NCBI GenBank assembly: GCA_903937035.1 | Contig: CAIZXS010000009.1 | Location: forward strand, 11,141 to 75,140 | Length of the DNA: 64,000 nucleotides | Direction of reading: 5' to 3' | DNA from: an uncultured bacterium | Lineage (GTDB): Bacteria > Patescibacteriota > Minisyncoccia > Moranbacterales > UBA2206 | Part shown: in pieces, positions 1,831 through 39,722 of the stretch | Layout of the letters: every line of letters starts with the position of its first letter | How positions within the stretch are numbered: position 1 is the first letter of the stretch | Position numbers and translations under genes: made by a program | Notes under the pieces: model-generated | What the model was told of the DNA's origin: nothing | Seen by the model: only the letters and a program-made list of their open reading frames with translations | The model's database searches: none

Positions 1831-1872
1831 TCATGCAACATGAAGCATGAAACATGTAACATAAATTAGAAT

Positions 1873-2274
1873 ATGCGAATAACATCAACACAATACGCAA
1901 AATCACTATACGAAGCAACTGCGGAAAAATCTCCCGGCGAGGTGGATGTTTTGGTGTCTAATTTTGTGAAAGTGTTGGCTAAAAATGGACAGATGAGACT
2001 GAAGAATGAAATTTTGCGAAAATTTGAAGTGGTATCGAACATGAAAAACGGAATCGTTGTGGCGGAAGTGAAATCGCGTGAAAAATTGAGCGAAGGAATG
2101 ATTGAAAAATTGATGGGTTTTATTAAAGCTAAATATCAAGCAGAAAAAGTGGTAATTGAAAATATTATTGATGAAAAGATTGGTGGCGGGGTGATTGTGA
2201 AAGTGGGGGATGAGATTTTTGACGCGAGCGTGAAGGGGCAACTCAAAAAAATGCAATATATTTTAGGGAAATAA
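1873..2274 (+). CDS. atpH: F0F1 ATP synthase subunit delta (OSCP), short form
   Basis: 133 aa, located between atpF and atpA. The C-terminal '[21 protein letters not shown]' is typical of the delta/OSCP C-terminus. Confidence 0.8.
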
Positions 2275-2309
2275 TTTATTTTAAAATTTTAAATTTCAAA
2301 TTAAAAATT

Positions 2310-3893
2310 ATGAATAAAGACTACATCATCGAACAACTGAAAAAACAAATTGGCGAATTTGAAAGTGTTGCCACGACAGAAAAAGTCGGAACCGTGGTGG
2401 AAATCGGTGACGGCGTGGCGCGGATCATTGGATTGGAAAATGCGGTGTCGAGTGAAATGCTTGAGTTCGTACCCTCCTCCGCCAAGGCTACGGCGGGCGA
2501 TGTCGAAATGAAGGCCGACTTGTCCGCCGAAGCTTCAGCGAAGGCGGAACCGATTTATGGAATGGTGCTTAATCTTGAAGAAGATCGGATTGGAGCGATG
2601 ATTTTGGGTGCTTATGAAGGTATCAAAGAAGGCGACACCGTGCGCTCAACCGGGCGCGTGCTTTCTGTGCCGGTTTCAGAGAATTTTATTGGACGCGTGA
2701 TTAATCCACTGGGAGTTCCGATTGATGGCAAGGGAGCAATCGCAGCAGATAAATTCATGCCGATTGAAAAAATTGCACCGGGTGTGATCACTCGAAAATC
2801 TGTGCATCAGCCGTTGCAAACTGGGATCAAAGCGATTGATGCAATGATTCCAATTGGTCGCGGACAACGCGAACTGATCATTGGAGACCGTCAAACAGGA
2901 AAGACTGCGATTGCAGTGGACACTATCATCAATCAAAAAGGTCAAAATGTGAAATGTATCTATGTGGCAATTGGACAAAAAGAATCTAAGATTGCGAGAA
3001 TTGTAGCAGAATTGGAAGCACGTGGAGCAATGGAATATACGACTGTGGTTGTGGCCGGCGCATCTGATCCAGCGCCACTATCATACATCGCACCCTATGC
3101 TGGTTGTACATTGGGAGAATTCTTTATGGACAAAGGTGAGGACGTGCTCATAATTTACGATGACCTTTCTCGTCACGCTTGGGCTTATCGTCAAATTTCT
3201 CTCATTCTTCGTCGCCCACCAGGACGTGAAGCCTATCCTGGCGATGTTTTCTATATTCATTCCAGACTTCTTGAGCGTAGTGCAAAACTAAATGAAAATT
3301 TTGGCGGTGGTTCAATTACAGCATTGCCAATTATTGAAACGCAATCGGGCGACGTGAGTGCCTACATTCCAACAAACGTGATTTCCATTACGGATGGTCA
3401 AATTTATCTGGAAGCTGATTTATTCTACAAAGGAATTCGCCCAGCACTTAATGTGGGAATTTCCGTGTCGCGCGTGGGTTCTTCCGCGCAAACCAAGGCG
3501 ATGAAAAAAGTGGCGGGAAAATTGCGCTTGGATATTGCCCAGTTCCGAGAGCTCGAAGCGTTTGCTCAATTCGGATCTGATCTTGATGAAAACACCAGGC
3601 AACGCATTGAAAGAGGACGCAGAACCGTAGAAATTTTGAAGCAAGGTCAATATGAGCCGATGCTTGTCGAGCATCAGGTGGCCATTATCTACGCTGTGAT
3701 CAATGGATTCTTGGACGACGTGGCGGTGGAACAAGTAGCCAACTGGGAACGTGATTTTCACAAATATCTTGATTCATCAGCGAAACCGGTCATGGATTTA
3801 ATTTCCGAGAAAAAGGATTTAACAGATGAGGTAGTGGAAAGACTGGTTGGAGCGATTAAAGAGTTTAAAGAAGTATATCAAAACGGTCACTAA
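2310..3893 (+). CDS. atpA: F0F1 ATP synthase subunit alpha
   Basis: 527 aa with the Walker A 'GDRQTGKT' and a conserved alpha C-terminal domain. It carries an unusual ~22-aa Ala-rich, GC-rich insertion in the N-terminal beta-barrel domain (nt ~2468-2553). Confidence 0.95.
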
Positions 3894-3899
3894 AAAAAT

Positions 3900-4859
3900 A
3901 TGAATTCAGCACGCGACATCAAACGTCGAATTAAATCGATTAATAATACTAAAAAAATCACCCGCGCGATGGAGATGGTTTCGGCTGCCAAAATGCGCAG
4001 GAGTGTTGCCAGCGTGGTGGGAATCCGACCCTATGCTCACTCAGCTTGGAGCGTGCTCACGAACTTAGCCAGAGCTTTCAAGGATCATCAGACAGGACTT
4101 TTGGAAGTGCGTGAAGTAAGAAGTGTTTTGGTGATTGCCATTGCGTCAAACCGGGGACTGTGCGGATCATTCAATGCGCAGGTGGCGAAAAAAATTAAAG
4201 ATGAAATTAGCAACCCAGAAAAATTAAAAGTTAATCGGATTGGAGATAAAAAATTGGAATCAAGCGTGCCGAATGTGGATTTGAAAATCGATTTCATTAC
4301 CGTTGGTAAAAAAGGCGAAGCGATGGTGAGGAGACTTGGCAAAGAAATTGTGGCCACTTTTCCAGAGCTAACCTATTTGCCAAAAATTGAAGATGTGCGG
4401 GCTGTTGCCAAAATTGTGATTGCGGATTATCTGGAGAAGAAATATGACAAAGTTGCCGTGATCTATACCGATTTTGTTTCCGCCATCAATCAACAAACAA
4501 AAATCAGACAAATCTTGCCAGTTTCAAAGATTGACCTGGAAAAGCAGATTGCTGAGATGGATATTTTGGCTAATGAAGTAGGTCTTAATGAGCCTGATTT
4601 GGAATACAAGATTGAACCAAGTCCAAAAGAACTCTTGGACTATATTTTTCCGCGTCTGATTGAAATGCAGATTTATCACGCCATTCTCGAATCGAACGCT
4701 TCCAAAGAATCTTCCAGAATGCTAGCTATGCGAAACGCCACGGATGCAGCGGGGGAGATGGCAGATGGACTCACGCTGGCCTACAACCAACTCAGACAAG
4801 CGAAAATTACACAGGAGATCGCGGAAATTTCAGCGGGGAAGGCGACACTTGAACAGTAG
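3900..4859 (+). CDS. atpG: F0F1 ATP synthase subunit gamma
   Basis: 319 aa with N-terminal 'IKRRIKSINNTKKITRAMEMVSAAKMRR' and C-terminal '...ITQEIAEI' gamma signatures. Confidence 0.9.
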   Translation: MNSARDIKRRIKSINNTKKITRAMEMVSAAKMRRSVASVVGIRPYAHSAWSVLTNLARAFKDHQTGLLEVREVRSVLVIAIASNRGLCGSFNAQVAKKIKDEISNPEKLKVNRIGDKKLESSVPNVDLKIDFITVGKKGEAMVRRLGKEIVATFPELTYLPKIEDVRAVAKIVIADYLEKKYDKVAVIYTDFVSAINQQTKIRQILPVSKIDLEKQIAEMDILANEVGLNEPDLEYKIEPSPKELLDYIFPRLIEMQIYHAILESNASKESSRMLAMRNATDAAGEMADGLTLAYNQLRQAKITQEIAEISAGKATLEQ

Positions 4860-9085: not shown

Positions 9086-9256
9086 ATGGGCGCTTGCGCA
9101 AAAGATAGGAATCTAGTAGGATTTAAAAAAGTTCAAGAGGAATTGACTAATATTGGCCCATTTAAGCCAAAGCAGGCTTTTGGGAGATTTTGATTGACAT
9201 TTGTTTGAATCTGTGCTATTGTTCAATGTTAATAATAAATTGGACAAATTATACAT

Positions 9257-9961
9257 ATGGGTAATAACAAAGAAATTAGCTTAGAAATGATTGTGCGTAG
9301 TTGGCGGACAATTTTAGTTTCCACTGTTGTTTTTTCTGTCGTGGCATTTTTCATAAGCACCATCATTGCTCCGCAATATGGCAGTGAAACGCAGATTTTG
9401 ATTTTGCAAAAAAGTGTGGACATCGATGCTTATCGCGCCACAAAGTCTTCTGAGTTTGCTGGTGAGGTGTTGACTCGCGTGGTCAGTTCATCTGATTTCA
9501 TGACAGGGGCGCTTGCAAAGGCAGGGGAGAATTATCTTAAATATGGCGCTACCCCAGAAGATCAGATGAAAAATTGGAACAAAGCAATCAACGTATCCAA
9601 CTTTGGTAGCACAGGAATCATCAAGATCGAAGTTTCTGATACCAGCAAAAAAGAAGATCGCAAGATGACGGAAGCGATTATCTCCGAGCTTTTGGACAAT
9701 GGTGTTAAGTATCATGGTAATGAAAACATCACACTGAAAAAAATTGGTGGTCCAGTCTATTTTAGTGACCCAGTCTTCCCAATTATCTGGCTCAATGTTT
9801 TGGCCGCAGCAATTGCAGGAATATTTTTCTCAATCGGCTTGGTATTCGTTTTGGGCGAAAGAGTGACATCTTGGTTTTCCAAAGGATCTCATGAGAGTTA
9901 TGATTATGCGAATAGTGGCCTAGTGGGTGGAGCATTCGAATATCGCAGAGATAGTTTTTAA
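9257..9961 (+). CDS. Wzz / polysaccharide chain-length determinant-like protein (short)
   Basis: 234 aa with an N-terminal TM (after 'MIVRSWRTIL'), a periplasmic domain and a C-terminal TM 'IIWLNVLAAAIAGIFFSIGLVFVLG'. It opens a polysaccharide biosynthesis locus. Confidence 0.55.
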   Translation: MGNNKEISLEMIVRSWRTILVSTVVFSVVAFFISTIIAPQYGSETQILILQKSVDIDAYRATKSSEFAGEVLTRVVSSSDFMTGALAKAGENYLKYGATPEDQMKNWNKAINVSNFGSTGIIKIEVSDTSKKEDRKMTEAIISELLDNGVKYHGNENITLKKIGGPVYFSDPVFPIIWLNVLAAAIAGIFFSIGLVFVLGERVTSWFSKGSHESYDYANSGLVGGAFEYRRDSF

Positions 9962-27692: not shown

Positions 27693-28526
27693 ATGAGTGA
27701 AAAAATGGGAAACGGAGGAGAAATTCTTTTTACGAGGCATAGTAAGGCAAAGTATGGAACCTACGGAGAAGCAGTTAAATCGGAGAATCCGGAGGCCCCT
27801 CATGATCCAAACAGGCAATTGGAGAATGATTTGCCAGAAGCGGGGATTGAGCTAGCGAGAAAAAAAGCAGAAGAACTCTTCGCGACAATGAATCCGGAAA
27901 CGGACGCGCTATTTTTTGCATCCAGCAAAGAGATGCGAGCGTTTGAGACCGCTAAAATTTATCGGGACATTGCCAAGGAAAAAGGTTTTGAAATTATTAT
28001 TCCCTATACCGAAGAAAACAAGGAAAAAAAGAGCGGCATAACCAGAAAATTAGCCGACGAAAATATCAAAGCAATTGACAGTCTATCGCTGAAAATTCCA
28101 AATTCATTAGTGGGAAATGTGTTTAATCCGGAAGCGTACTTGGGTGAAATCAATTGGAGTGCAGTTGACGAAGAGACTAAGCGAAAATGGAAAGAAGCGA
28201 GAGAAATAATCAACTCGGATGATCAAGGGTCATGGGGCGCTAATTTCTATAAACATTCAGAGGCGATCCAAAAAATATTTCCCGAAATAAAATCTTCCCG
28301 AGATGAATATGCAACAACTTTTCAAAAATTATTAAGACTTACTGAATTTGCTCAAAATAAGATTAAAGAAGTCGGGCATGGTAAAAATGTAAAAGTGCTA
28401 TCTTTTGGTCATGAAAACTACATGGGATATGCAATGAATAAATATTTGGGAGATCATAATTTGGGCAATTGCGAGACTGTTTCAATTGATGTGGATGGGA
28501 AAGAGCTTATTAAAAAAAGAAGTTAG
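27693..28526 (+). CDS. Histidine phosphatase superfamily (PGM/SixA branch)-like protein
   Basis: 277 aa. 'LFTRHSKAKYG' (RHG-like), 'LFFASSKEMRAFETAKI' (like the SP.xRAxQTA motif) and a second His in 'VLSFGHENYM'. Paralogous to 37413-38258. Confidence 0.5.
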   Translation: MSEKMGNGGEILFTRHSKAKYGTYGEAVKSENPEAPHDPNRQLENDLPEAGIELARKKAEELFATMNPETDALFFASSKEMRAFETAKIYRDIAKEKGFEIIIPYTEENKEKKSGITRKLADENIKAIDSLSLKIPNSLVGNVFNPEAYLGEINWSAVDEETKRKWKEAREIINSDDQGSWGANFYKHSEAIQKIFPEIKSSRDEYATTFQKLLRLTEFAQNKIKEVGHGKNVKVLSFGHENYMGYAMNKYLGDHNLGNCETVSIDVDGKELIKKRS

Positions 28527-28557
28527 ATTGAATTAACAATTTACAGTAGTCAGCTAT

Positions 28558-30057
28558 ATGAAAGAACTTAAAAAGAATAAGTATAAAATTTTGCGTAACA
28601 GGAGGGTGATGCCGCTTCCTGCGATTTGGAATGGCAAAAGCCAATCGAGTGAGGGCGCAAGAAATATCCATCATGTCGCTCTAAAAAAGATCTGGAATTA
28701 TCTTGAAAATGAAGAAATAATCGCATTTTACATAGGAGAGGAGTGGACTGATATTGGAGAATATATCGCAAAAAGAATGATTGAGGATAAAAAGTATATT
28801 CCCAATGTGTATAAGCTGCAAAGGGAAAGGGGGAGATTCTTGGTTTTGCTTTCAAAGGAAATCCGAAGATTGAAATTGGGCAATCTCAATTTAGACCAAC
28901 TTTTTGCGGAGTATCAAAAAATTGAAAATGCGTGGGTTGATTTTGATCATGTTAATATGCCGACTTGGCTTATCGGAGGTGAATATTTTCAAATAAAGCT
29001 CAAAAACAAGCTGGGTATGTTGGGTATATCAGAAGAAGAGATATATACACTTTTGACACCGAATGAATTATCCTTCAGTGCAAAGGAAGAGTTGGGAATT
29101 TTGAAAATAGCGCTAAAATTAAAAAGTGATTTGCGAAGCAATAAGAAGTGGATTCTTTCAGGTGATGCAAGGAGGGGCATGGCTGCATTGGTAAAAAAAT
29201 ATCATTGGATTCCTTTCGGTTATGATGGTCCAGATCTTTATGATACAAAGTATTATGAAAAAGCCGTGCGAGAAATGGTGGAAAAAATGAATTCAAGAGA
29301 AATTAAGCAAAAAATTGAAAAAATAGACAGCTACAGCTCGAAAATAAAAGAAAGGCAGGGAAAAATTTTTGCAAAATATCACTTATCGAAAGAGCTGAGA
29401 AGACAGATCAAAATCATCCAGACCTTAGCCAAAATGACGGACGAACGAAAGGAGTATACTTTTCAATCGCACATTGCATTTCAAGGTGTAATAGAACATA
29501 TAGCACGAATCTTGGGGCATGATTGCTTGGTGCTAAAGCATCTTATTTTGGATGAGATTAGGCAATATCAGAATGATCCGAAAAAAATTATTAAGTTGGG
29601 AGAAGAAAGAATGAAAAGCCCTGTGATGTTTTATAGGCATGATGGGAAGCTGGACATTATCACTGGCCCAAGAGCGAAAAAAATGTTCAAAGAAATGATT
29701 GGAGAGGATGTCGCTTCGGATGGTTTGATTTTAAAAGGCAGTGTGGGAAGCAAGGGGAGTGTTCCAATTGTGCGAGGAATCGTTAGAATTCTTAGTACAC
29801 CGCAAGAGATGAATAAATTAAAAGACGGAGAAATTTTGGTGACGGCGATGACTACGCCGGAATATGTTCCGGCGATGCGTCGCAGCCTCGCCATCATCAC
29901 CGACGAAGGCGGCGTGACGTGTCACGCGGCGATTGTGAGCCGCGAGCTGGGAAAGCCTGCGATTATCGGCACAAAAATCGCGACAAAATTTTTGAAAAAC
30001 GGAGAGTTCATTGAAATGGATATGAAAAAAGGCCAAATAAAAAAACTAGCCCAATGA
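28558..30057 (+). CDS. PEP-utilizing-enzyme mobile (swivel phosphohistidine) domain protein with a ~380-aa helical N-terminal domain; no ATP-grasp domain
   Basis: The C-terminal 100 aa 'GEILVTAMTTPEYVPAMRRSLAIITDEGGVTCHAAIVSRELGKPAIIGT' match the phosphohistidine swivel domain of PEP synthase, PPDK and rifampin phosphotransferase. Confidence 0.75.
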   Translation: MKELKKNKYKILRNRRVMPLPAIWNGKSQSSEGARNIHHVALKKIWNYLENEEIIAFYIGEEWTDIGEYIAKRMIEDKKYIPNVYKLQRERGRFLVLLSKEIRRLKLGNLNLDQLFAEYQKIENAWVDFDHVNMPTWLIGGEYFQIKLKNKLGMLGISEEEIYTLLTPNELSFSAKEELGILKIALKLKSDLRSNKKWILSGDARRGMAALVKKYHWIPFGYDGPDLYDTKYYEKAVREMVEKMNSREIKQKIEKIDSYSSKIKERQGKIFAKYHLSKELRRQIKIIQTLAKMTDERKEYTFQSHIAFQGVIEHIARILGHDCLVLKHLILDEIRQYQNDPKKIIKLGEERMKSPVMFYRHDGKLDIITGPRAKKMFKEMIGEDVASDGLILKGSVGSKGSVPIVRGIVRILSTPQEMNKLKDGEILVTAMTTPEYVPAMRRSLAIITDEGGVTCHAAIVSRELGKPAIIGTKIATKFLKNGEFIEMDMKKGQIKKLAQ

Positions 30058-30120
30058 TAGTGTGAACACAAGGTTCACGATATATCATTAGGCTAGCGAC
30101 GTAGTTGGTTGGTTTGCCAA

Positions 30121-30624
30121 TTACATTTGGAGTGCGGGGTCAAAAACTCCATATGCAATCATCTGATCAATCTGACGAATTTCTCCGTCATTACAGAGGA
30201 TGCGATATACTGCCGCGCTCTTTCCGTTGATGCCCAAGGCGATCATGAAAGGTCTGCCGGAACAAACCACAGTTTTATCTGCAAGCCCTGTGATAAACCT
30301 TTTTGCAGATACGGAGTTGTCGGCGAGGGAGGTGTACAGGGCGATATTGATATGGGTTCCATCGGACAGGATTACAATTTTTTCACCGTCAATGACTTCC
30401 ATGCTGTCGGGATCGCCAACAACGGAAGAATAACGACGGATTTCATTGTAATTCAGTGCTGTGGCCACATCAAGATGGCGTCCCCCGGTTCCAACAACCA
30501 AAACGGGTATTTTTACGGGAAGGAGGTGGCGGAGAGATGCGATTTCTTCAAATCCCTTGGGAGTCATGCGGGGATTTGGGCCATTAGTCTTATCACCATG
30601 AGTTACTACAAAAATTTCGTTCAT
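30121..30624 (-). CDS. Small SixA-like histidine-phosphatase-fold protein (degenerate RHG as THG)
   Basis: 167 aa. 'FVVTHGDK', then 'MTPKGFEEIASL', then 'VLVVGTGGRHLDVATAL', matching the SixA layout RHGDA...PLT.xG...LVSPFxRAxQT. Assignment is tentative. Confidence 0.35.
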   Translation of the reverse strand: MNEIFVVTHGDKTNGPNPRMTPKGFEEIASLRHLLPVKIPVLVVGTGGRHLDVATALNYNEIRRYSSVVGDPDSMEVIDGEKIVILSDGTHINIALYTSLADNSVSAKRFITGLADKTVVCSGRPFMIALGINGKSAAVYRILCNDGEIRQIDQMIAYGVFDPALQM

Positions 30625-30714
30625 TCTCGGGTCCTTTCATAATTGCTATTGGTTTGTAAAATGTACTTCCAAGCTTTTTATTTTAACTGCTAATTATATA
30701 TCAAATTCAGCTAA

Positions 30715-33700
30715 TTGTCAAGCCGTCGCTTAGCTAGAGCTGATTTGAGCCTCAATATGCTTACAAAAAACTTCCAACAACTATCCAAATCAGACGCTCA
30801 AATCGCCGGTGGCAAAGGTGCGTCACTTGGCGAAATGACAAACGCGGGAATTCCAGTTCCACCCGGCTTTGTCGTGCTTTCTGATGCTTTCGAACAGTTC
30901 CTTGCCGAAACGGATTTGAATGTGGAAATTGAGGCAATTCTCAAAACTGTGGATAATCAGAAAATGCATACGGTGGAAAATGCGTCAGAAGAAATTCAAG
31001 CGCTAATTCTCCAAGCTAAGATGCCGGAAGATATTGCAAAAGAGATTCAGGAAAACTTCAAAAAACTAGATGCCAAGTTTGTAGCCGTGAGATCAAGTGC
31101 CACCGCCGAAGATGGTGCAGAAGCGGCCTGGGCTGGGCAGCTAGACAGTTATCTCAATACGAACCAAGAAGCACTTCTCAGAAACGTCCAAAAATGTTGG
31201 GCGTCACTTTTCACGCCGAGAGCCATCTTTTATCGCTTTGAAAAAAAACTGCACAAGCAAAAAATATCCGTGGCAGTGGTCGTGCAAAAAATGATCCAAA
31301 GTGAAATTTCTGGCATCGCTTTTTCCGTTCATCCAGTCACCGAGGATTATAATCAAATGATTATCGAAGCTGGCTTTGGTTTGGGCGAAGCGATTGTTTC
31401 CGGGTCAATTACGCCGGATGCCTATGTGGTGAGCAAAAATCCGAGAAAAATAGAGGACATCAATATTTCCCAGCAGCCCAAGGGACTTTTTAGAAAAAAA
31501 GATGGCGGAAATGCCTGGCAAGATATTCCCGAGAAAGAAGGCAAAAAACAAAAACTATCAAAAAAACAAATCCTGGAATTGTCAGATCTAATCATAAAAA
31601 TCGAAGACCACTATCAATTCCCGGTGGACATTGAGTGGGCATATGAAAACAAGAAATTCTATATTGTGCAATCGAGACCGATTACGACGCTTATCAAAAA
31701 GTTGGGAGATATGCCAAAGAAAAATGTTGGCAGTGGAAGTGGAATCTTGGAGAATAATTTAGGCAAAAAGGATGGAAAAGTAATTGGGAAATTGTCGGAC
31801 TACCAACAAATGTTTAAATGGCAAAATTCTCTTCCTTATCTCGTAACGTCACTTTTTTTGACTTACTATAAAAAATTAGATGTTTTGATTCTGTCTGATC
31901 CTAAGTTGTGGGTAGCATATTTGCCTCTATCGAAAATGGAAAAAACTCACCAAGATGGGTTTAAGATTTATGGTGACAAAAAAAGATATGCAGAGTATAG
32001 GGATGACTTTAAGAAGTATATGGAAAATTCCGAGAAGTTCTTTAAGAATGTTATCCACAGTAAAGATTTGGACAAAAGCCAGACAAGAGAATTCTTGAAT
32101 AGGGTGGCAAAACTTTTTTCGTATTATTCAAAAGCAGAATTTTTTTATACTGAAAAGGCATACTTTGAGCAGGAGAATAACCTGGCTATCAAAGAAAATT
32201 TTGCAACTTTTGAGCAGCTAAAAATAGATGGTCGAAAATTTTTGAATAAAATATTTTTCGAAAAAGATACCTACTTGCTCCAACTAATGAATAGATTATC
32301 CGAAAAATTCAAAATTTCATCAGATTTTCTTCTGACATATAATCAACAAGAAATTCTCGATTTGTTTGAGGGGGGTATTGTGGATGAAAAAATAATTTTG
32401 CAAAGAAAAAGAGCGTATATTTCAAAAGGAAAAAAGGAGGGGATTGCTAGTTATCATGGAACGGAAGCGGAGAAAATGATTAAAGAATTTAATTCGGAGC
32501 AATCTGAAAGCGGAAATGTGTTGAAAGGGCAAGTTGCCAATAAGGGATATGCGAAAGGCGAAGCTCGAGTTTTTAAATTTGGCTTGAATGATTTTCATCT
32601 ATTGAAAGAAATGATTGATTCTATGAAAAAGGGAGAAATATTGGTAGCTGAAACTACGGCGCCTGAAATAATGGTAGCTTGCCAAAAAGCTAGCGCTATC
32701 GTGACTAATCAGGGAGGCATGATGAGTCATGCAGCGATTATTTCACGAGAAATCGGCATCCCGTGTATTGTGGGGACAAGTATTGCAACAGAGGTTATCC
32801 AAAATGGCGATTTGGTGGAAGTGGATGCTAATGAGGGAGTGGTGAGAATTTTAAGAAGAAACTCTGATGAAGAAAGTGGAATTGTTTTCAACAAAAAGTA
32901 TGAGCGTGTTTTTGGCGGACCGAATATGTCGTTTCTAATTTCGGATATTATTACGGATGTGTATGCCCCAAAATATGGATTCGTGACGATGTATAAAAAT
33001 TCCATTTGGACATGCTACATGCCCATTGAAGAAAAAAACAAAACTTTAGCAGAAGGAGCGGAGTTGTATGAGAATATGGAGAAGTATGAGGAATTTAGAA
33101 GTGAATATCTGAAATTTATTGATGCTTATGATAAACACTTTCGCGAAATATTTAATCCAAATAAAGTTATTACCAAAGAAATATTTGAAGCGCTTATTGA
33201 TCTATTTAAAAAAGCGGAGTCATATTATGCATATACGCAATATTTCTACACCGATGGGATTTCCCAAGCAAATAAAGAATTTGAAGTAGAATTTGGAGCT
33301 CTCAAAGAAAAGGGTCGAGAACTTTTGAATAGGCAATATTTTTCTGGCAATAATTACCTAAACGAAGTCCTTGAGGCAGTTTCTAAGATAATAGCTATTA
33401 AAAAAGATGAACTGTATAATTATGCCTGGCAGGATATTAGTTTGCTTTGGAATAGCAATAATGCCAAAAAAGACATTCGTAAATGGGAAACTTATGTCAC
33501 GTATCCAATAAATGGGTCCAAGAGCACTGCCTTTGAATCGGAAGCTTTGGAAATTATTGATCAATTTTTATCAAATCATAACGATCACCGTGAAATACTG
33601 AGTGGCACGGTTGCCAATAGGGGCAAAGTCGTGGGTAATGCTTATGTTCTTGATAAGGGCTATGATCACAGGGGTATCGGAAAATTTATTGATGAGATGG

Positions 33701-35241
33701 AAAAAGGCGCTATTCTTATCACTGAGACAACTTCGCCTGAGATCATGACTGCTTGCGAGAAAGCCAGCGCAATTGTGGCTAATCAAGGAGGACTGATGTC
33801 GCACGCCGCCATCGTTTCTCGGGAATTAGACATCCCTTGCATTGTCGGATTGGAGGGAGCGACTGAAATTATAAAGAATGGTGATTTGGTTGAAGTGGAT
33901 GCGGATAATGGAATCGTTAGGATTTTGGAAAAGGCGAAAAATGATGAATATTTCAAGTTCAAATTTCCGGCCTATCGGTATTTTATGGCAAATAGGCTGA
34001 TTCCTACTTTTAAATATGAAGGGGTCTATTTATGGGGGGAGATATTTGGCGAATATTCTTTCGATGGTATACACAGAACTTGCACTAATAAAAACGTTCT
34101 CCTTGAGCCGGGAAAAAAACTTTTTGCGCTACTGAAAAAAGGTGATCAAAAACTGGAAAAAGAACTTCTTGCGCTTGTGAATAAGATTATTCCATTGGCA
34201 AGAGATCTTCAAGAAATTATCTTGAGAGATAAGCTCACCGGTCATGTTTCCAATCTCAATGATTTTTTCCCCAATTACGAGAAAGTATTCAATAAAGCCT
34301 TGGCGTTCGGTTATCCTCTTGATTATGCTATTGATGAATATCTCAAGAAAGATGCTTCGCTCTCAGAAAATTTGCAATCCCCATACAGTTCTTTTTTGAT
34401 GGAGGAGGAATATGAATTGTATGAAATATTTTCAAAAAAATATAAAAAACCAGAACTAGGCAGGGCACTTGAGCGCCACCTGGCGAAATATGCTTGGATT
34501 AAATCTGATTATCAAGGAGAAAATGTGCTGACAATTGATGATTTATATGCAAAAGAAGCTCGGCTGATGGATACGAAACAGGAAAAAACCAAAAGTGTCG
34601 GTGGAAAAATTTCCGCTCCAAAAAATTTGCAGGAATGGATTTCTCTTCTGATATATTTGAGAGATGTGAGAAAAAAAGTAGGGATGATTGGTGTGGTTTT
34701 GCTAGACCGATATTTAAAGCAGGAATGTCAAAGATTGAAAAAAGATTATCTGAAAGCCAGACTGTTATCGGTGGCAGAGTTTGAGCAGTATAAAAATAAA
34801 AAACTTCCGGAATATCTGGACAAAAGAAATGAACGCATGTCTCCTGATGGCATAGAAATTATACCCAATGAAAAATGGCAAAAGTATCCCTTTAATCAAG
34901 AAGTGGTGGTGGACAAGGAAAAGCTTTTAACAGGAGTGGTTGCCAATAAAGGTAAGGTTAAGGGAATAGCAAGGATAATCATTGGAAAACACGATTTTCA
35001 TAAGATGGGAAAAGGAGAGATTATCGTTGCTTCAATGACTAGACCGGAATTTATGCCAATTCTCAGAAAAGCTTCTGCCATACTAACTGAGCAGGGTGGC
35101 ATCACTTGTCACGCAGCGATTATCTCAAGAGAGTTGGGTGTGCCTTGTATTATTGGTATCGAAAATCTGACAGCGGCATTGAAGGACGGAGATTTGGTGG
35201 AAGTAGACGCGGATAATGGGGTGGTTAGAATTTTGAAATAA
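30715..35241 (+). CDS. Giant multidomain phosphotransferase: PEP-synthase-type N-terminal ATP-grasp (PPDK_N) domain plus three [helical domain + swivel phosphohistidine domain] modules
   Basis: 1508 aa; the track ORF starts at a TTG at 30715, and the first ATG is at 30757. Residues 1-325 match PEP synthase/RPH ATP-binding domains ('AQIAGGKGASLGEM', 'VAVRSSATAEDG', 'FSVHPVTED', 'YIVQSRPIT'). Swivel domains with catalytic His lie at ~nt 32560-32850 (QGGMMSHAAIISRE), 33600-33920 (QGGLMSHAAIVSRE) and 34920-35238 (QGGITCHAAIISRE). Confidence 0.8.
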   Translation: MSSRRLARADLSLNMLTKNFQQLSKSDAQIAGGKGASLGEMTNAGIPVPPGFVVLSDAFEQFLAETDLNVEIEAILKTVDNQKMHTVENASEEIQALILQAKMPEDIAKEIQENFKKLDAKFVAVRSSATAEDGAEAAWAGQLDSYLNTNQEALLRNVQKCWASLFTPRAIFYRFEKKLHKQKISVAVVVQKMIQSEISGIAFSVHPVTEDYNQMIIEAGFGLGEAIVSGSITPDAYVVSKNPRKIEDINISQQPKGLFRKKDGGNAWQDIPEKEGKKQKLSKKQILELSDLIIKIEDHYQFPVDIEWAYENKKFYIVQSRPITTLIKKLGDMPKKNVGSGSGILENNLGKKDGKVIGKLSDYQQMFKWQNSLPYLVTSLFLTYYKKLDVLILSDPKLWVAYLPLSKMEKTHQDGFKIYGDKKRYAEYRDDFKKYMENSEKFFKNVIHSKDLDKSQTREFLNRVAKLFSYYSKAEFFYTEKAYFEQENNLAIKENFATFEQLKIDGRKFLNKIFFEKDTYLLQLMNRLSEKFKISSDFLLTYNQQEILDLFEGGIVDEKIILQRKRAYISKGKKEGIASYHGTEAEKMIKEFNSEQSESGNVLKGQVANKGYAKGEARVFKFGLNDFHLLKEMIDSMKKGEILVAETTAPEIMVACQKASAIVTNQGGMMSHAAIISREIGIPCIVGTSIATEVIQNGDLVEVDANEGVVRILRRNSDEESGIVFNKKYERVFGGPNMSFLISDIITDVYAPKYGFVTMYKNSIWTCYMPIEEKNKTLAEGAELYENMEKYEEFRSEYLKFIDAYDKHFREIFNPNKVITKEIFEALIDLFKKAESYYAYTQYFYTDGISQANKEFEVEFGALKEKGRELLNRQYFSGNNYLNEVLEAVSKIIAIKKDELYNYAWQDISLLWNSNNAKKDIRKWETYVTYPINGSKSTAFESEALEIIDQFLSNHNDHREILSGTVANRGKVVGNAYVLDKGYDHRGIGKFIDEMEKGAILITETTSPEIMTACEKASAIVANQGGLMSHAAIVSRELDIPCIVGLEGATEIIKNGDLVEVDADNGIVRILEKAKNDEYFKFKFPAYRYFMANRLIPTFKYEGVYLWGEIFGEYSFDGIHRTCTNKNVLLEPGKKLFALLKKGDQKLEKELLALVNKIIPLARDLQEIILRDKLTGHVSNLNDFFPNYEKVFNKALAFGYPLDYAIDEYLKKDASLSENLQSPYSSFLMEEEYELYEIFSKKYKKPELGRALERHLAKYAWIKSDYQGENVLTIDDLYAKEARLMDTKQEKTKSVGGKISAPKNLQEWISLLIYLRDVRKKVGMIGVVLLDRYLKQECQRLKKDYLKARLLSVAEFEQYKNKKLPEYLDKRNERMSPDGIEIIPNEKWQKYPFNQEVVVDKEKLLTGVVANKGKVKGIARIIIGKHDFHKMGKGEIIVASMTRPEFMPILRKASAILTEQGGITCHAAIISRELGVPCIIGIENLTAALKDGDLVEVDADNGVVRILK

Positions 35242-35276
35242 AAAAACAGCCCAATCTCTCGCAGGAGATTGGGCTG
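35241..35276 (-). terminator. Terminator (T-run on the minus strand) after the LMW-PTP gene; may also pause plus-strand transcription from the giant gene
   Basis: CAGCCCAATCTC-tcgcag-GAGATTGGGCTG, with an A7 run on the plus strand, which is a T7 run on the minus strand. Confidence 0.6.
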
Positions 35277-35288
35277 AGGTTGTGGCGG

Positions 35289-35735
35289 TTATTTTTCAGA
35301 AAACCGGCGCGTTACCACCCTGTACATCTTGGCCATGACGTTTTCGGCAACTTCGTCATGGTCTCGCTGGTCGCTGGATGGCCAGGGGTTGGAGAGTTGA
35401 ATGTTAAAGATCTTTTCGGTTGGTACCTTATACTTCCCGAAAAGTTCTCCGGCTACCGTCTCATCCACGCAAACGATGAGTTCATATCGTGATAGATCAA
35501 GTGAGCCGACCCATCTTTTCTGGTGGCCAGAGAGATCAAGCCCTAACCGTTTGGCAGAAACTACGCCATTAGGACTGGCGGAGCCACCGTTCTTGGTGAA
35601 CTCCATCATTCCAGCGCTTTCTACCGTAACTTCATGGCCAGCGTTTTGGAGATACATCCCCAGAACGGCAGCCATAAGCGGGCTGCGATCGGAATTGCCA
35701 ATACATACACAAAGAACTTGTTTGATATTAAGCAC
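35289..35735 (-). CDS. Low-molecular-weight protein tyrosine phosphatase / arsenate-reductase-fold phosphatase
   Basis: 148 aa with an N-terminal P-loop 'VLCVCIGNSDRSPLMAAVL' (CX4-5R, CxGNxxRS signature). Confidence 0.75.
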   Translation of the reverse strand: MLNIKQVLCVCIGNSDRSPLMAAVLGMYLQNAGHEVTVESAGMMEFTKNGGSASPNGVVSAKRLGLDLSGHQKRWVGSLDLSRYELIVCVDETVAGELFGKYKVPTEKIFNIQLSNPWPSSDQRDHDEVAENVMAKMYRVVTRRFSEK

Positions 35736-35897
35736 TATTCACCTCACTGGTTGATTGTTTTGCCATTGTGGCACATGAAAACTACTTTCCTCGACTGACC
35801 CAATAGTATAGCATATCTAGCGTAAAAAGTCAAATGTCAGTTTGATTTTATGGTTTAAATGGGGTAGTATTGAGTAAGATTGGATAATTTTTGATGT

Positions 35898-37388
35898 ATG
35901 GAGAGGAAAAATAGCTATCAAAAAATGTGGGGAGCGCACGCGATGGGCGTTTTTTGGGGTGAGCTGGTGATGCGCAATTTTTCTAGGAAGAATAAATATA
36001 AAACGGTGGCCGGTATCAGCGAAAAAAACGCTGTTTTTTATTATCACAAAAGCGTGGGAACAGCATTTTATAATTCAGTTCCCGAAATGGACGTATCGGG
36101 CGCAATTGGTCGGGAAAGATTTTCTAATCAAAAAGAACTAAAGAAATATATTGAAAATTCCAAGGAGGCTATTGGAAAATCTGATGCATTGTATTTTGAC
36201 GTGTTAAAAGAAGACTTAGATAAAAAGAACGCTAGAGCGCTTTTCAACCTATTGGAAGCGCAAGCAGATTGTTTTAATGAGATATACAGCTACTATCATG
36301 CTTGTCAGCCACAATATTTTTCTGAAATAGAAAAAGATATAAAATTATATCTGGCTAAAAAAGGACTGAGTCGAGAGGCTAATTATTATATCGGCTTACT
36401 TTCTTCTCAGGAAGAATTGGATGTGATCGCCAAAGAGGAAGTTGAATGGCTGACTATTGCCAGGATGATGCAAGAAAAAAAGTTAGATAGGGCTTCATTG
36501 GTCGAAGCTAGCGAGATGGAAAATAAATTAAAAAGGCATATTGATAAATATATGTCTTTAGGTAGCGGGGAGGGAGGGCGACCATGGGATAAAAAGTATT
36601 ATTGGGGTATTTTTGAAAAAATTGATTTTGATATTAATAAGAAGATATCAGATATTAATGAAAGAAAAAAAGTCTTAATGCAAGAAAAAGAGGCATTTAT
36701 TCGGGAGAAAGAAATTTCCAATGAGGTCGTGGAACTTGCCAATGCCGTGGGAAAACTTGGCATGCTGCGATTGGAGATTCGTCTCAGTTGGATGCGGTTT
36801 AGTCACACTATTACCAACACGCTTTTAGCGCTGGGGAAAGAAATTAGTCTTGATAATATCTTGGAAATAAGGATGGATGAAATCAGGAACATAATAGAAA
36901 ATAACGATCATGCAGTGACGGAAGAAGAAATAAAAAGACGCCAGGAAGCCTTTTTGTTTTTAGTTGAAAATGAAGAGGAAAAATTATTCATTGGAAATGA
37001 AGCGATTAGTCTCAAGGAAAAGCTTGTGCCTTCCGAGATTTCAGACACTTTGGAGATAAAAGGATTTGTGGCTTGCAAGGGTATGGTTCGAGGGAAAGTT
37101 TTTATGATTGATTGGAATAATAAAAATCTGACTGAAGCGATGAGAAACATGGCGGAAGGAGCTATTCTAATAGCTGGACAAACCAGACCTCAGCTTATGC
37201 CAGTTATCAAAAAAGCGGCGGCGATTGTAACTGATGAAGGAGGGATTATGTGTCACGCTGCTATTGTTTCCCGTGAGCTCAACATTCCTTGCATCATCGG
37301 CACCAAAATCGCTACCCAAGTTCTCAAAGATGGTGATTTGGTGGAGGTTGACGCAAATGAGGGAATTGTTAGAATTATAAAGAATTAA
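35898..37388 (+). CDS. PEP-utilizing-enzyme mobile domain protein (helical N-domain + swivel phosphohistidine domain)
   Basis: 496 aa with C-terminal 'GAILIAGQTRPQLMPVIKKAAAIVTDEGGIMCHAAIVSRELNIPCIIGT'. Same modular layout as 28558 and 38277. Confidence 0.75.
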   Translation: MERKNSYQKMWGAHAMGVFWGELVMRNFSRKNKYKTVAGISEKNAVFYYHKSVGTAFYNSVPEMDVSGAIGRERFSNQKELKKYIENSKEAIGKSDALYFDVLKEDLDKKNARALFNLLEAQADCFNEIYSYYHACQPQYFSEIEKDIKLYLAKKGLSREANYYIGLLSSQEELDVIAKEEVEWLTIARMMQEKKLDRASLVEASEMENKLKRHIDKYMSLGSGEGGRPWDKKYYWGIFEKIDFDINKKISDINERKKVLMQEKEAFIREKEISNEVVELANAVGKLGMLRLEIRLSWMRFSHTITNTLLALGKEISLDNILEIRMDEIRNIIENNDHAVTEEEIKRRQEAFLFLVENEEEKLFIGNEAISLKEKLVPSEISDTLEIKGFVACKGMVRGKVFMIDWNNKNLTEAMRNMAEGAILIAGQTRPQLMPVIKKAAAIVTDEGGIMCHAAIVSRELNIPCIIGTKIATQVLKDGDLVEVDANEGIVRIIKN

Positions 37389-37412
37389 AAATAATTAATT
37401 AATAAAAAAAAT

Positions 37413-38258
37413 ATGGAACAAAACGAATCAAGTATGTTTATGACTCGGCACACGATAAAGCCCAAAGGCGAGGATCTTAAATCGGAAAGATATCCTGGCG
37501 CGTCTGAGCGTGGCGTAGATTTGGCAAAAGAGAGAGCGAAGGAAGAGATCTTGAGTTTGATTGAAAAGGCAAAACCAGGAACAGTGGTGATTATTAGCGG
37601 TGCGTCTGAAGTGGACAGAACAAAATCAGCCGGAGAAATATATGGGGATGAGCTCCAGGAGTTACTCAAGGATAATCCGGGCTATCTGGTTGTCACAAGA
37701 AGCGAAGTTCAAGACATGTTGAGTCAAAAAGATGGCAAGGCACTTGATAAATTAGCAGAAATTGTTAGAAGTAATCCTGATAAAAAGATTGTTATTGATT
37801 TTCCATTATTCTTGAAAGAATTTGGTTTCGGTGCTGGGAGGTGGACAGAAAAAGATGGAAATCTTACAAAATATTTTCAAGCATTGTTAGAAAAACACAA
37901 TAATGATGAAATGGCATGCGTCAAGGATTGGATTGAAAATGAAGGACGCATTGATGGGTCGTCTTTGCAAGGACCGAATCCAGCTGAGATGGCAAAAGAG
38001 CACATCGAGGGACTAAAAAGAATTAATGATTTTGCTCGAAAACTGATTGGAGGGAGTCGGCCAATTATGGTGGGCGGTGTAGGGCATAGTGTGAATTTGG
38101 ATGCTACCGCAATATATTTGTCCAATAATGGTCAAGTAACAATGGAGGGATTTGAAAAACTAGGTGGGGAGTTGATAAAAGAAACCGAACTGATGCAGTT
38201 AGAGACAAAAGATGGAAAGACCATCTTCAATTACAGAGGCAAGGAATTTATTGTTTAG
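37413..38258 (+). CDS. Histidine phosphatase superfamily-like protein (paralog of 27693)
   Basis: 281 aa. 'FMTRHTIKPKG', 'VVIISGASEVDRTKSAGEI' and a second His in 'MVGGVGHSVNLDATAI'. Confidence 0.5.
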   Translation: MEQNESSMFMTRHTIKPKGEDLKSERYPGASERGVDLAKERAKEEILSLIEKAKPGTVVIISGASEVDRTKSAGEIYGDELQELLKDNPGYLVVTRSEVQDMLSQKDGKALDKLAEIVRSNPDKKIVIDFPLFLKEFGFGAGRWTEKDGNLTKYFQALLEKHNNDEMACVKDWIENEGRIDGSSLQGPNPAEMAKEHIEGLKRINDFARKLIGGSRPIMVGGVGHSVNLDATAIYLSNNGQVTMEGFEKLGGELIKETELMQLETKDGKTIFNYRGKEFIV

Positions 38259-38276
38259 TCTGCTAATTAGTAAATC

Positions 38277-39722
38277 ATGGATATGACTTGGAAAATTTAT
38301 ACACGAGGAACAATTTTCCCTCACTCATTCTCACTTTCCTTTAAAGCGCATCAGCTGTCAGAAAAGCTGATTGGCTTTAATTTTCTAGCTTTCTTCTATA
38401 TTAATATTGAAGATAAATTGTGGTGGGCATGGAAAGAAGACGATGTTCTTTTCCTAGGCGCTTCAATCCTCAAAAGATGTGAGACGAAGAGGGGGCAAGA
38501 AAGGGATTTTAAGAAATTTGATGAATTTTGCAAAAGAGCGCTAAAAGCGGCGGATAAAGTAAGAAGGATGGATCTGGGAAAATTTAGTGACAGAGAGTTG
38601 CTCGGACTGTACGATTATATTTACAAAGAATCTGCCAACGCGCATGGTCTCATGAATCCCTATATCGACGTAATTGATGTTGTTTTTGAAGATTTTTTGA
38701 TGGAAAAAATTAAGACTGAATTGAAAGCTGCAACAGAAGCTGAGGCGCTGAATGTTTACAAAGAGCTAACTGTCCCAAGCTGTTTGACGTATTTGATTAG
38801 AGAAGAAGAGGATATTATTCGAGGTATTATTAGTGGAAAATCAGTTGGGGAAATAGCTAAAACTATTTTTAAGAAATATTGGTGGATAAGTCTTGGGTGG
38901 GAAAATATGCATCCCCATAGCGAGCAGTATTTTGCGAAAAAAATTACAAAACATTTCAAGCTCAAAAATTTAGCTGAACGCTTGGGGAAAATAAAAAGCT
39001 ATGGTCGGGAGATAAAAAACAAAAGAAAAATAATAATCAAGCAATATGGGTTGTCAAAAAATATTGCGTATTGGCTGGATGTCTTGGACGAGCTGGCCTA
39101 TTATCATGATGTGAGAAAAGAGATGCAAATGAGAACTGTTTATGCGTCGCATCAGGTGCTGGAGGAGATTAGTAAGAGGATTGGTATTCCAGTGAAAAAT
39201 CTATTGTGGTTTTGGGAAGATGAGGTGAAAGAATTTTTGTTAAACAAATCGTTTGACAGGGAGGAACTAGAAAATAGAAAAAAAGCCTTTTTTAGTGTAG
39301 TGTATAAGGGTAGCACTTCTTGGTTATCAGGAGAGAAGGCTCTCAGTGAAAGCAAGAAGTATATTGGCCTAGAAAATGGGAAACATGATTTGGTAAGGGA
39401 ATTTAGGGGTTTTGCCGCATCCAAGGGGATGGTGAGGTCAAAAGTGAAAGTGTGCGCGGGATATGTAGAAGCTTTAAAGAAGGTAAAAAAAGGTGAAATT
39501 TTAGTGTGTGGAATGACTACACCTGACTATGTTCCTGCTATGCGAAAAGCTTCTGCTATAATAACAGATGAGGGTGGTATTACTTGCCATGCTGCGATTA
39601 TCAGTAGGGAGCTGGGCATTCCCTGTGTCGTGGGAACAAAAGTCGCTACTCAAGTTTTACATGATGGTGATTTGGTCGAGGTTGATGCGAATGTGGGAAT
39701 TATTAGAATTTTAAATAACTAA
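38277..39722 (+). CDS. PEP-utilizing-enzyme mobile domain protein (helical N-domain + swivel phosphohistidine domain)
   Basis: 481 aa with C-terminal 'GEILVCGMTTPDYVPAMRKASAIITDEGGITCHAAIISRELGIPCVVGT'. Confidence 0.75.
   Translation: MDMTWKIYTRGTIFPHSFSLSFKAHQLSEKLIGFNFLAFFYINIEDKLWWAWKEDDVLFLGASILKRCETKRGQERDFKKFDEFCKRALKAADKVRRMDLGKFSDRELLGLYDYIYKESANAHGLMNPYIDVIDVVFEDFLMEKIKTELKAATEAEALNVYKELTVPSCLTYLIREEEDIIRGIISGKSVGEIAKTIFKKYWWISLGWENMHPHSEQYFAKKITKHFKLKNLAERLGKIKSYGREIKNKRKIIIKQYGLSKNIAYWLDVLDELAYYHDVRKEMQMRTVYASHQVLEEISKRIGIPVKNLLWFWEDEVKEFLLNKSFDREELENRKKAFFSVVYKGSTSWLSGEKALSESKKYIGLENGKHDLVREFRGFAASKGMVRSKVKVCAGYVEALKKVKKGEILVCGMTTPDYVPAMRKASAIITDEGGITCHAAIISRELGIPCVVGTKVATQVLHDGDLVEVDANVGIIRILNN

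Follow-up and report, generated by a model that had tools for sequence, protein, structure and literature searches.

Rifampin phosphotransferase and the two-component small-molecule dikinases combine an ATP-grasp domain, a middle domain and a swivel domain with its histidine (PMC4844700, PMC12167813), and the Hpe pathway includes a later step that takes the phosphate off again (PMC12167813). Within the HP (histidine phosphatase) superfamily, SixA dephosphorylates the phosphohistidine of NPr and of Ndk (PMC7948535, PMC12934123), and branch 1 of this superfamily includes dPGM, PhoE, the PspA-type phosphoserine phosphatase, CobC and FBPase-2. We analyzed a 64,000-nt stretch of patescibacterial DNA (the window) with a 12-kb island, flanked by ftsW and murG, whose kinases, like the split forms of related loci, share the ATP-grasp/substrate-binding/swivel logic of rifampin phosphotransferase, HpeHI, CreHI and PpsAB. 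The island and related loci differ from these systems in that one ATP-grasp domain is accompanied by up to 6–9 paralogous modules, three of which are fused in a 1508-aa chain in the island. HP-fold partners are undescribed for rifampin phosphotransferase and the two-component dikinases, and a literature search on Patescibacteria returned nothing relevant, either for dikinase arrays or for HP partners.

The kinase set of the island comprises a single ATP-grasp domain and six modules, paralogous to one another, that consist of a middle domain and a swivel His each. The ATP-grasp domain (PPDK_N; PF01326, 1.1e-100) forms the N-terminus of the 1508-aa dikinase [30715..35241 (+), with its true start probably at the ATG at 30757] and is followed by three modules (PF00391, three matches). 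The other modules are a 499-aa protein [28558..30057 (+)] with a divergent substrate-binding-like middle domain and a C-terminal PEP-utilizers swivel (PF00391, 1.1e-23), a 496-aa protein [35898..37388 (+)] and a 481-aa protein [38277..39722 (+)], the latter two recognized by Pfam and the swivel motif. This motif, GG-x-(T/M)-(C/S)-H-A-A-I, was found in all six swivels (6/6); in the 499-aa protein it reads GGxTCHAAI and the catalytic His is kept. The swivels share a mean identity of 55% and the middle domains 22–28%, and all modules could therefore be served by one protein. No sequence relatives of the middle domains were detected in the PDB. Just upstream of the swivel they show homology to the part of RPH/PigC/RedH-type dikinases that binds the substrate and, judged by this homology, probably already hold the acceptor site. 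PF01326 and PF00391 were the only domains found, and Pfam detected the PEP-utilizers_C TIM barrel in none of the swivel proteins. The absence of this C-terminal domain rules out a PEP synthase or PPDK identity of the kinases, in agreement with an earlier note on this DNA, which had suggested a role outside central carbon metabolism. The gene content of the island varies between close relatives; its interpretation as a hypervariable defence system is unsupported, as PADLOC gave zero defence-system matches among the eight island proteins. Rfam gave no match anywhere in the window.

The four reading frames that the earlier note had assigned to phosphatases (P1 to P4) are all present, at the coordinates and on the strands given here. 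Three of the products, all very divergent in sequence, have a modelled or predicted HP fold, as had been proposed: P1 [277 aa, family A1; 27693..28526 (+)], P2 [167 aa, 'THG' family; 30121..30624 (−)] and P4 [281 aa, family A2; 37413..38258 (+)]. The AlphaFold model of P1 (pLDDT 91.1) gave 118 Foldseek matches at E ≤ 0.001 (best 4.8e-6), exclusively to HP-superfamily structures, and contains the three-layer alpha/beta core of branch 1 (PF00300). P4 is a paralogue-level relative of P1 with weak direct pairwise similarity. An hhalign comparison of A1 and A2 detected full-length homology (98.8% probability, E 4.6e-17) in which all four catalytic positions align, and P4 is predicted to adopt the HP fold from this profile homology. 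Single-sequence searches with P1, P2 and P4 against Pfam, NCBIfam and PDB sequences yielded noise alone; PF00300 did not match these three proteins even at E ≤ 1 and thus stayed below the Pfam gathering threshold. PF00300 was the sole Pfam family matched repeatedly by family members (27 of the 36 in A1 and 7 of the 35 in A2). Only part of the family members matched PF00300, and weakly (best values 1.2e-5, 2.3e-5 and 3.5e-4). In NCBIfam, no dPGM or GpmB match was obtained for the HP-fold proteins. Family profiles searched against the PDB gave no match for A1, a marginal match to 3eoz at the RHG/SxxxR region for A2 and scattered weak HP matches for the THG family.

The Arg-His pair is kept in both capped families, as R15-H16-S in P1, where it is placed after strand E10–15 of the model, and as R12-H13-T in P4. 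The second Arg, which in branch 1 opens the helix behind strand 2 in the motif S-x-x-x-R-A/T-x-x-T-A, is R82 in P1, R69 in P4 and R49 in P2 and is invariant or near-invariant, and the second catalytic His, in a Gly-His after a late core strand, is H240 in P1 and H225 in P4. In the A1 alignment R82 and H240 are invariant and R15, H16 and E241 near-invariant; in the A2 alignment R12, H13, R69 and H225 are invariant. The RH[ST]/R/GH layout noticed earlier in P1 and P4 is therefore conserved throughout A1 and A2 and is not a chance resemblance. With a full Arg-His/Arg/His set, P1 and P4 are predicted to be catalytically complete HP enzymes; the placement of the catalytic residues in the models we infer from their position at the ends of core strands. 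P1 and P4 resemble the branch 1 HP enzymes in core fold, in the Arg-His/Arg/His set and in having a cap, and they are kinase-paired like FBPase-2, although P1/P4 and their partner are separate polypeptides. They differ from these enzymes in sequence (10–16% identity), in a Ser/Thr instead of Gly as third residue of the motif, in their partner kinase, which is a swivel dikinase or a PfkB kinase, and in the cap, which is far larger and unrelated. In P1 the cap is a helical insertion of ~130 residues, in which I172, G182 and N184 are invariant and W181 is near-invariant in dikinase-linked and PfkB-linked members alike. A large conserved cap is typical of HP enzymes acting on small molecules and sets P1 and P4 apart from SixA.

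P2 is a minimal HP-fold protein without cap (model pLDDT 94.6), of SixA-like size (~160 aa). E. coli SixA is the second-best structural neighbor of the model, with about 15% identity to P2, and no curated model recognizes P2. Since hhalign comparisons of the THG family with A1 (3%) and A2 (42%) were not significant, the assignment of P2 to the HP superfamily rests on structure. P2 had been described as SixA-like with THG in place of RHG, and the substitution is a trait of the family: position 8 is T in 63 of 73 members and R in none, so that the RHG motif of SixA is not present, and P2 keeps His9-Gly10 behind Thr8. A second substitution had been missed. The C-terminal catalytic His of SixA corresponds to Arg124 in P2, with Arg at this site in 55 of 73 members; His50, beside Arg49, might compensate for the missing His. 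Conserved pocket candidates are H9, K12, R49, H50 and R124, and in the family, which comprises 341 clusters at 50% identity, conservation is strong at the nucleophile His and at a group of polar residues. As P2 is without two canonical phosphate-pocket residues, it could be inactive or act as a carrier. Relative to its neighbors, the P2 gene runs convergently to the 499-aa gene and divergently from the 1508-aa gene. A candidate sigma-70-type promoter [TTGACA-17-TATAAT; 30693..30721 (−)], recognized by its consensus match alone (12/12), lies ~69 nt before the start codon of P2 and suggests that P2 is transcribed on its own. We discarded the + strand ORF 30109–30642 as a P2 shadow, because its composition is unlikely and it belongs to no family, in contrast to the minus-strand product with its 341 relatives and confidently predicted fold.

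In an unbiased genome scan, A1/A2 genes adjoin swivel-domain dikinase genes in 11 of 17 loci; in the other six, and in L004, a PfkB sugar kinase gene abuts the HP gene. Adjacency of A1/A2 and swivel genes was recorded in L003, L005–L007, L010–L018, L022–L024 and L028, with the HP gene either following a swivel-ending gene at 5–80 nt or immediately preceding a module. The PfkB-paired A1 loci contain no swivel gene within 10 kb, and L024 has the gene order swivel, HP, PfkB. In L010, a close relative, the genes of the dikinase and of an APH-type kinase flank an RHG-type HP gene; the 282-aa island protein of this locus (9110–9958) is not HP-like. Stand-alone ATP-grasp genes, representing split dikinase forms, occur in L007, L011 and L014. 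P2-type genes were located by a pattern scan based on a narrow alignment, the broad P2 alignment being without a conserved stretch. Eight of the nine loci with usable flanks place them within a swivel array and on the strand opposite to it, and the P2-type genes in arrays (window, L008/9 and L029–L037) always have this orientation; in L024 the distance between the P2-type gene and the nearest swivel gene is 7 kb, and the P2-type gene adjoins pyruvate kinase and enolase. P2-type and P1/P4-type genes seldom share a locus, on contigs that are short. Adjacency of HP and kinase genes recurs in about 30 independent loci, indicating that the HP-fold proteins are genuine partners of the phosphorylation system. 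The analysis shows the folds, the conserved residues and the gene linkage, and A1, A2 and THG as conserved partners of kinases; the clustering of HP genes with phosphohistidine modules noticed in the earlier note extends to many Patescibacteria genomes, to which the three families appear to be restricted. A canonical His_Phos_1 gene is additionally present in the L003 and L005 genomes. Each locus has one or two HP genes against 1–9 very different modules. A cassette of an HP gene with one orthologous module was tested as well, and the neighboring module was not orthologous between loci. The lack of a fixed HP-module pairing argues against a product cycle with one phosphatase per module and agrees with a generic target, for instance the phosphohistidine of the swivels.

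The explanation that we tentatively prefer is a Patescibacteria-specific, ATP-driven dikinase system in which P1 and P4 would be small-molecule-phosphate enzymes, P2 would act on swivel phosphohistidine and P3 would be a passenger. The ATP-grasp domain and the six modules would constitute the dikinase system, with the three HP-fold proteins as functional partners. P1 and P4 would be capped enzymes, hydrolases or mutases, whose substrates are the small-molecule phosphates that the adjoining kinases produce, and by removing or relocating phosphate on these products they would create a transient-phosphorylation or substrate cycle, for which PFK-2/FBPase-2, or the dikinase and subsequent dephosphorylation of the Hpe pathway, may serve as models. 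To our knowledge, PfkB kinases form no phospho-enzyme and no phosphohistidine intermediate, and we read P1 and P4 in this way because of their PfkB partners and the cap conserved in both linkage types. Of the two possibilities raised in the earlier note, a phosphorelay or a substrate cycle, the former is weakened for P1 and P4 on the same grounds and the latter fits them better. A phosphohistidine-directed role is plausible mainly for P2, since it has no cap, has SixA as structural neighbor, resides in swivel arrays and has a predicted promoter of its own, and since the swivels are conserved. Transcribed separately, P2 may act on the phosphohistidine of the swivel domains and so reset or throttle the array, using a rearranged pocket in which Thr-His follows strand 1, the second motif is Arg-His and an Arg takes the place of the second His. 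In this proposal, what serves as substrate and which way the phosphoryl groups flow are inferred. A bolder version, which we consider decidedly unlikely, makes P2 a dedicated swivel-phosphohistidine partner, either a permuted-pocket phosphatase or a phospho-carrier, that would form a PTS-like His-to-His network in Patescibacteria together with P1/P4 and the dikinase. Its pocket would be His/Arg-His/Arg instead of Arg-His/Arg/His, and the ATP-driven network would trap or process scavenged metabolites.

An unlikely alternative, if a serious one, which corresponds to the reversible phosphorelay of the earlier note, is that P1, P4 and P2 all dephosphorylate swivel His~P, as SixA-like brakes against futile ATP use or for tuning flux. 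The tight 5–80 nt spacing to swivel-ending genes, the conservation of the swivels next to diverged middle domains and the independence of HP genes from any particular module type would all be accommodated, and the rare co-residence of P2-type and P1/P4-type genes is as expected for analogues, within the limit set by short contigs. The superfamily also contains proven phosphohistidine phosphatases, such as SixA acting on NPr and Ndk (PMC7948535, PMC6282199, PMC12934123). However, the P1 family is equally paired with PfkB kinases in loci with no swivel within 10 kb, P1 and P4 carry a large conserved cap that SixA does not have, and the presence of two weakly similar capped paralogues from different families suggests different small substrates. 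Very unlikely in our view is a relay in which the HP-fold His takes the phosphoryl group from swivel His~P and passes it to the substrate, with P2 as carrier rather than hydrolase; dPGM-like mutase or phosphotransferase chemistry would then replace the missing PEP-utilizers_C catalytic domain. As far as we know, HP enzymes all act via a phospho-His intermediate. This agrees with such a relay, as do the conserved nucleophile His of A1, A2 and THG, the basic pocket (K12, R49, H50, R124) that P2 retains after losing two hydrolysis-aiding residues, and the lack of a recognizable third catalytic domain in any swivel protein. Against the relay stands the acceptor site that the middle domains probably hold already; it also leaves the PfkB pairing unexplained, and transfer from swivel to HP protein has no known precedent. 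Highly improbable, finally, is that P2 is a pseudo-enzyme or a binder with a regulatory function, that the HP genes are housekeeping phosphatases or phosphoglycerate mutases in a variable island, or both. The RHG Arg and second His missing from P2, the P2-type gene beside pyruvate kinase and enolase and the differing island content of close relatives would suit this, but not the strong conservation of the nucleophile and polar residues across the 341 clusters, the kinase adjacency in about 30 loci, the separate His_Phos_1 gene of the L003 and L005 genomes or the lack of an NCBIfam dPGM or GpmB match.

Under the preferred small-molecule cycle, the system may help episymbionts to capture or detoxify host-derived compounds. 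A tiny Patescibacteria genome here devotes 12 kb to paralogous phosphohistidine kinase modules, and relatives carry up to nine such genes running. Three uncharacterized HP-fold families, invisible to Pfam, are now linked to kinases, and a kinase/phosphatase pair offers a concrete experimental handle, as it can be assayed far more easily than an orphan kinase. The THG clade shows a rearrangement of the catalytic tetrad that is canonical in a textbook enzyme superfamily, and this bears on the evolution of phosphohistidine chemistry and on the short list of phosphohistidine phosphatases.

The fourth protein, P3 [148 aa; 35289..35735 (−)], belongs to the LMW-PTP family, with a Pfam LMWPc match (PF01451, 1.6e-11) of 45 bits against a cut-off of 23.2 bits and matches to LMW-PTPs in the PDB at about 1e-6 (1.5e-6). 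Its P-loop, C11-IGNSD-R17-S18, is intact and aligns with the C-X5-R-S loop of bovine LMW-PTP, Wzb and YwlE, from which it differs in having Asp16 for the second Cys. N116-P117-W118 presumably aligns with the DPY/DPF of these three proteins, a placement that is indicative only; the general-acid Asp would accordingly be Asn116 in P3. The LMW-PTP assignment made in the earlier note is correct, and its word textbook, used there of the P-loop, applies to the P-loop alone. P3 had also been counted as part of the phosphatase/phosphohistidine system. A homologue was found in none of 38 related loci outside the window, so that P3 is not a conserved companion of the dikinase arrays, and a counterpart is missing from the same island in L010. 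Given these absences and the Asn at the general-acid site, P3 is probably a lineage-specific local passenger outside the conserved system. The gene has its own promoter-like site (35833–35805), and a terminator-like element [35247..35276 (−)], consisting of a 12-bp GC-rich hairpin and a T-run, lies immediately past its stop codon.

The window appears to come from a Patescibacteria genome of the Moranbacteria type. Its gene order includes trmD, ftsW, a 12-kb insert, murG, murC, a P-type ATPase gene and murB, and the identical or near-identical proteins originate from Moraniibacteriota MAGs. The insert consists of eight genes encoding, in this order, the capped histidine-phosphatase (HP)-fold protein P1 (27693-28526, + strand), a protein of 499 aa whose C-terminal part is a PEP-utilizers swivel domain, the SixA-like P2 (30121-30624, - strand), a 1508-aa protein (30715-35241) with a PPDK_N ATP-grasp domain and three swivel domains, the LMW-PTP-family protein P3 (35289-35735, - strand), a 496-aa swivel protein, the second capped HP-fold protein P4 (37413-38258, + strand) and a 481-aa swivel protein. 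The true start of the 1508-aa dikinase is likely the ATG at 30757 and not the TTG at 30715. This chain contains one ATP-grasp domain and three repeats of a middle domain followed by a swivel with its catalytic His; three further modules of this kind are stand-alone genes. All six swivels of the window retain the motif GG-x-(T/M)-(C/S)-H-A-A-I with its catalytic His. Mean identity is 55% among the swivels and 22-28% (partial lengths) among the middle domains.

None of the insert-encoded proteins contains the PEP-utilizers_C barrel, and on the upstream side of the swivel NCBIfam similarity runs on for a short distance, matching RPH/PigC/RedH in their substrate-binding regions. Judged from these sequence features, the kinase side is of the rifampin-phosphotransferase or two-component small-molecule dikinase type (PMC4844700, PMC12167813). 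PEP synthase was ruled out for the partner kinases because the barrel is absent, which agrees with the earlier note in placing the cluster outside central carbon metabolism. Although the partner kinases are similar to RPH and to HpeHI/CreHI/PpsAB, the window adds the combination of one ATP-grasp domain with many modules as well as HP-fold partners, and no description of either was found in the literature searched. No defence-system signal and no RNA-family signal were found.

As single sequences, P1 and P4 gave no match in Pfam, NCBIfam or PDB sequences, and their pairwise BLAST similarity is marginal (E 0.039). Their relatives in Patescibacteria form 71 clusters (P1 family) and 47 clusters (P4 family). 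R15-H16 is present in 90% or more of the P1 family, and S78, R82-A83-x-x-T86-A87 and H240, the latter followed by a near-invariant E241, are invariant; in the P4 family R12-H13, R69-T70 and H225 are all invariant. Profile-profile comparison identified the two families as homologous over their full length with the four catalytic positions aligned (probability 98.8%, E 4.6e-17). The only Pfam family matched repeatedly was PF00300, by 27 of 36 P1-family members (best 1.2e-5) and 7 of 35 P4-family members (best 2.3e-5), and in a phosphoglycerate-mutase-like structure from Plasmodium the P4 profile weakly matched the stretch from RHG to SxxxR. In a confident AlphaFold2 model of P1 (pLDDT 91.1, pTM 0.89), R15-H16 lies at the end of strand 10-15, strand 71-77 is followed by helix 81-96 with R82 at its start, and H240 immediately follows strand 232-239; the modelled catalytic residues occupy the canonical topological positions, with about 130 inserted helical residues between them. 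A Foldseek search of the PDB with this model returned HP-superfamily structures only (118 matches at E<=0.001), namely phosphoserine phosphatases, dPGMs and acid phosphatases, with TM-scores of 0.40-0.48 because the core alone aligns. By predicted fold and full catalytic set, and for P4 by profile homology to P1, both are assigned to the HP superfamily.

The minus-strand ORF encoding P2 is a real gene; in a search of 1.84 billion proteins, 341 cluster representatives matched a profile built from nine of its relatives. A + strand ORF (30109-30642, 177 aa, TTG start) that fully overlaps it was rejected as a shadow ORF on account of its Cys-rich composition and lack of relatives. Weak PF00300 matches occur in 19 of 73 P2-family members, and the weak PDB matches of the profile are almost all HP enzymes. 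Position 8 is Thr in 63/73 and never Arg, and is followed by His9 (63/73), Lys12 (51/73), Asn/Asp17 (72/73), Pro18 (71/73), Arg49 (71/73), His50 (60/73), Gly123 (59/73) and Arg124 (55/73); in the model, Arg124 follows strand 119-122, at the site of the canonical second His. With Thr8-His9, Arg49-His50 and Arg124 so placed, the family appears to keep two His and two Arg in permuted positions. P2 is structurally close to SixA and lacks a cap, but fails two of the defining residues of SixA; its modelled fold puts it in the HP superfamily. The window proteins P1, P4 and P2 lie outside every curated family model. What the earlier note had read from single sequences, an RH[ST]..S(x)RA/T..GH layout in P1 and P4 and a SixA-like P2 with THG for RHG, is conserved at the family level.

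A 12/12 match to the sigma-70 consensus TTGACA-17-TATAAT is located at 30693-30721 (-), approximately 69 nt upstream of P2, in the 132-nt gap where P2 and the dikinase gene are head-to-head. Together with a Shine-Dalgarno-like GAAAGGA, this suggests that P2 is transcribed separately. Where P2 and the 499-aa gene lie tail-to-tail, the gap between them contains a long imperfect inverted repeat (30052-30092).

P3 scores above the Pfam LMWPc threshold (45 bits vs 23.2), matches many LMW-PTP structures and has an intact P-loop (C11-I-G-N-S-D-R17-S18). Its P-loop had been described as textbook, which holds for the P-loop but not for the general-acid motif: D-P-(Y/F) of bovine LMW-PTP/Wzb/YwlE aligns with N116-P117-W118, a placement to be taken as indicative. 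P3 is accordingly classified from sequence as an atypical family member.

Related loci came from exact-protein look-up, from scanning a genome collection with the P1 family (17 loci) and from scanning metagenomes with the P2 family (10 loci). Their six-frame ORFs were scanned with our own HMMs for swivel, ATP-grasp and middle domains, the three HP families and P3. Counts are raw numbers from about 38 loci, many on short contigs and some redundant (L001/L002/L025; L003/L017; L008/L009; L032/L033/L035). Co-occurrence with swivel proteins was found for the P1, P4 and P2 families but not for P3, of which no homologue was detected in the 38 other loci; P3 is probably an unrelated passenger. In the unbiased genome scan, a swivel gene is directly adjacent to the P1-family gene on the same strand in 11/17 loci. 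Usually the swivel gene comes first, with 5-80 nt between its end and the HP start; elsewhere the HP gene immediately precedes a middle-domain plus swivel gene, and in L014 it lies between a stand-alone ATP-grasp gene and a module. Swivel adjacency was also seen in all five P4-family loci examined, window included. Loci without the system have zero swivel domains within 20 kb. A PfkB-family kinase gene immediately follows the HP gene in all six swivel-less genome-scan loci and in L004 (swivel-less loci with PfkB: L001/L025, L004, L019, L020, L021, L026 and L027), and in L024 swivel, HP and PfkB genes are consecutive. By Pfam these partners belong to the sugar/nucleoside kinase family, with no subfamily assignable. 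The P2-type gene and its swivel neighbours are no more than about 100-900 nt apart, and without exception on opposite strands, in 8/9 metagenome loci (L038, too short to judge, left out), in L008/L009 and in the window; the P2-type gene is tail-to-tail with one swivel gene and head-to-head with the next. In the short L031 a middle-domain gene is the sole neighbour seen. The single exception is L024, with the P2-type gene outside the swivel array; there (1750-4799) it is divergent from a barrel-only pyruvate kinase gene (342 aa, no C-terminal domain), followed by enolase.

Three observations are to be read mechanistically: the folds, the conservation of catalytic residues and the conserved kinase linkage. 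P1 and P4 could act as hydrolases or mutases on a small-molecule phosphate, a reading we hold tentatively. PfkB kinases transfer phosphate directly, without a phospho-enzyme intermediate, so that the PfkB pairing favours a small-molecule substrate, as does the large cap, whose residues I172, W181, G182 and N184 are conserved in dikinase-linked and PfkB-linked members alike. Precedents point the same way: PFK-2/FBPase-2 pairs a kinase with an HP phosphatase, and there are dikinase pathways in which phosphate is removed later (PMC12167813). Counting against it, as many as nine highly diverged modules share one or two HP genes, and different loci have non-orthologous modules beside the HP gene. 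This would fit phosphatases acting on the swivel phosphohistidine, a generic target given that swivels are more alike than middle domains, but the PfkB partners offer no such target, and we regard this alternative as unlikely. The same pairing qualifies the earlier association of the phosphatases with phosphohistidine carriers, which otherwise stands as a linkage of HP families to kinases across loci; a relay involving P1 and P4 is highly improbable.

For P2, a protein-directed, regulatory role on the phosphorylated swivel is conceivable and close to an even call, based on the missing cap, the likeness to SixA, the almost constant embedding in swivel arrays and the predicted separate transcription. 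It would be analogous to SixA, which acts on NPr and on the catalytic phosphohistidine of Ndk (PMC7948535, PMC12934123). Since its pocket is altered, P2 might alternatively serve as a carrier or bind without being active.

The ftsW-murG island is hypervariable, as its content in L010 (5038-12419) differs from that in the window (27693-39722), yet the pairing of an HP-fold gene beside a kinase gene persists. The island of L010, a close relative, encodes a dikinase of 678 aa, an HP protein of the RHG type (hhalign 82% to the P1 family), an APH-type kinase, a 282-aa protein unrelated to the HP families, a P4 orthologue 90% identical to P4 of the window and a single stand-alone module, and it lacks P2 and an LMW-PTP. 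The same HP and swivel cluster is carried by L018 (labelled Bdellovibrionales) and L028 (labelled Gammaproteobacteria), which are probably mis-binned contigs and not occurrences outside the radiation. Runs of 5-8 consecutive swivel-domain genes, often accompanied within the 20 kb examined by just a single ATP-grasp gene or by none, are present in L030, L034, L037, L011 and L018. A glycogen-type gene pattern not seen in the window occurs in L011 (14382-20659), where genes for a GT5 synthase, a GH57 protein, a GDE_C-type protein and a double APH-domain kinase lie directly downstream of a large swivel array, a neighbourhood that recalls glucan-water-dikinase/phosphoglucan-phosphatase cycles.
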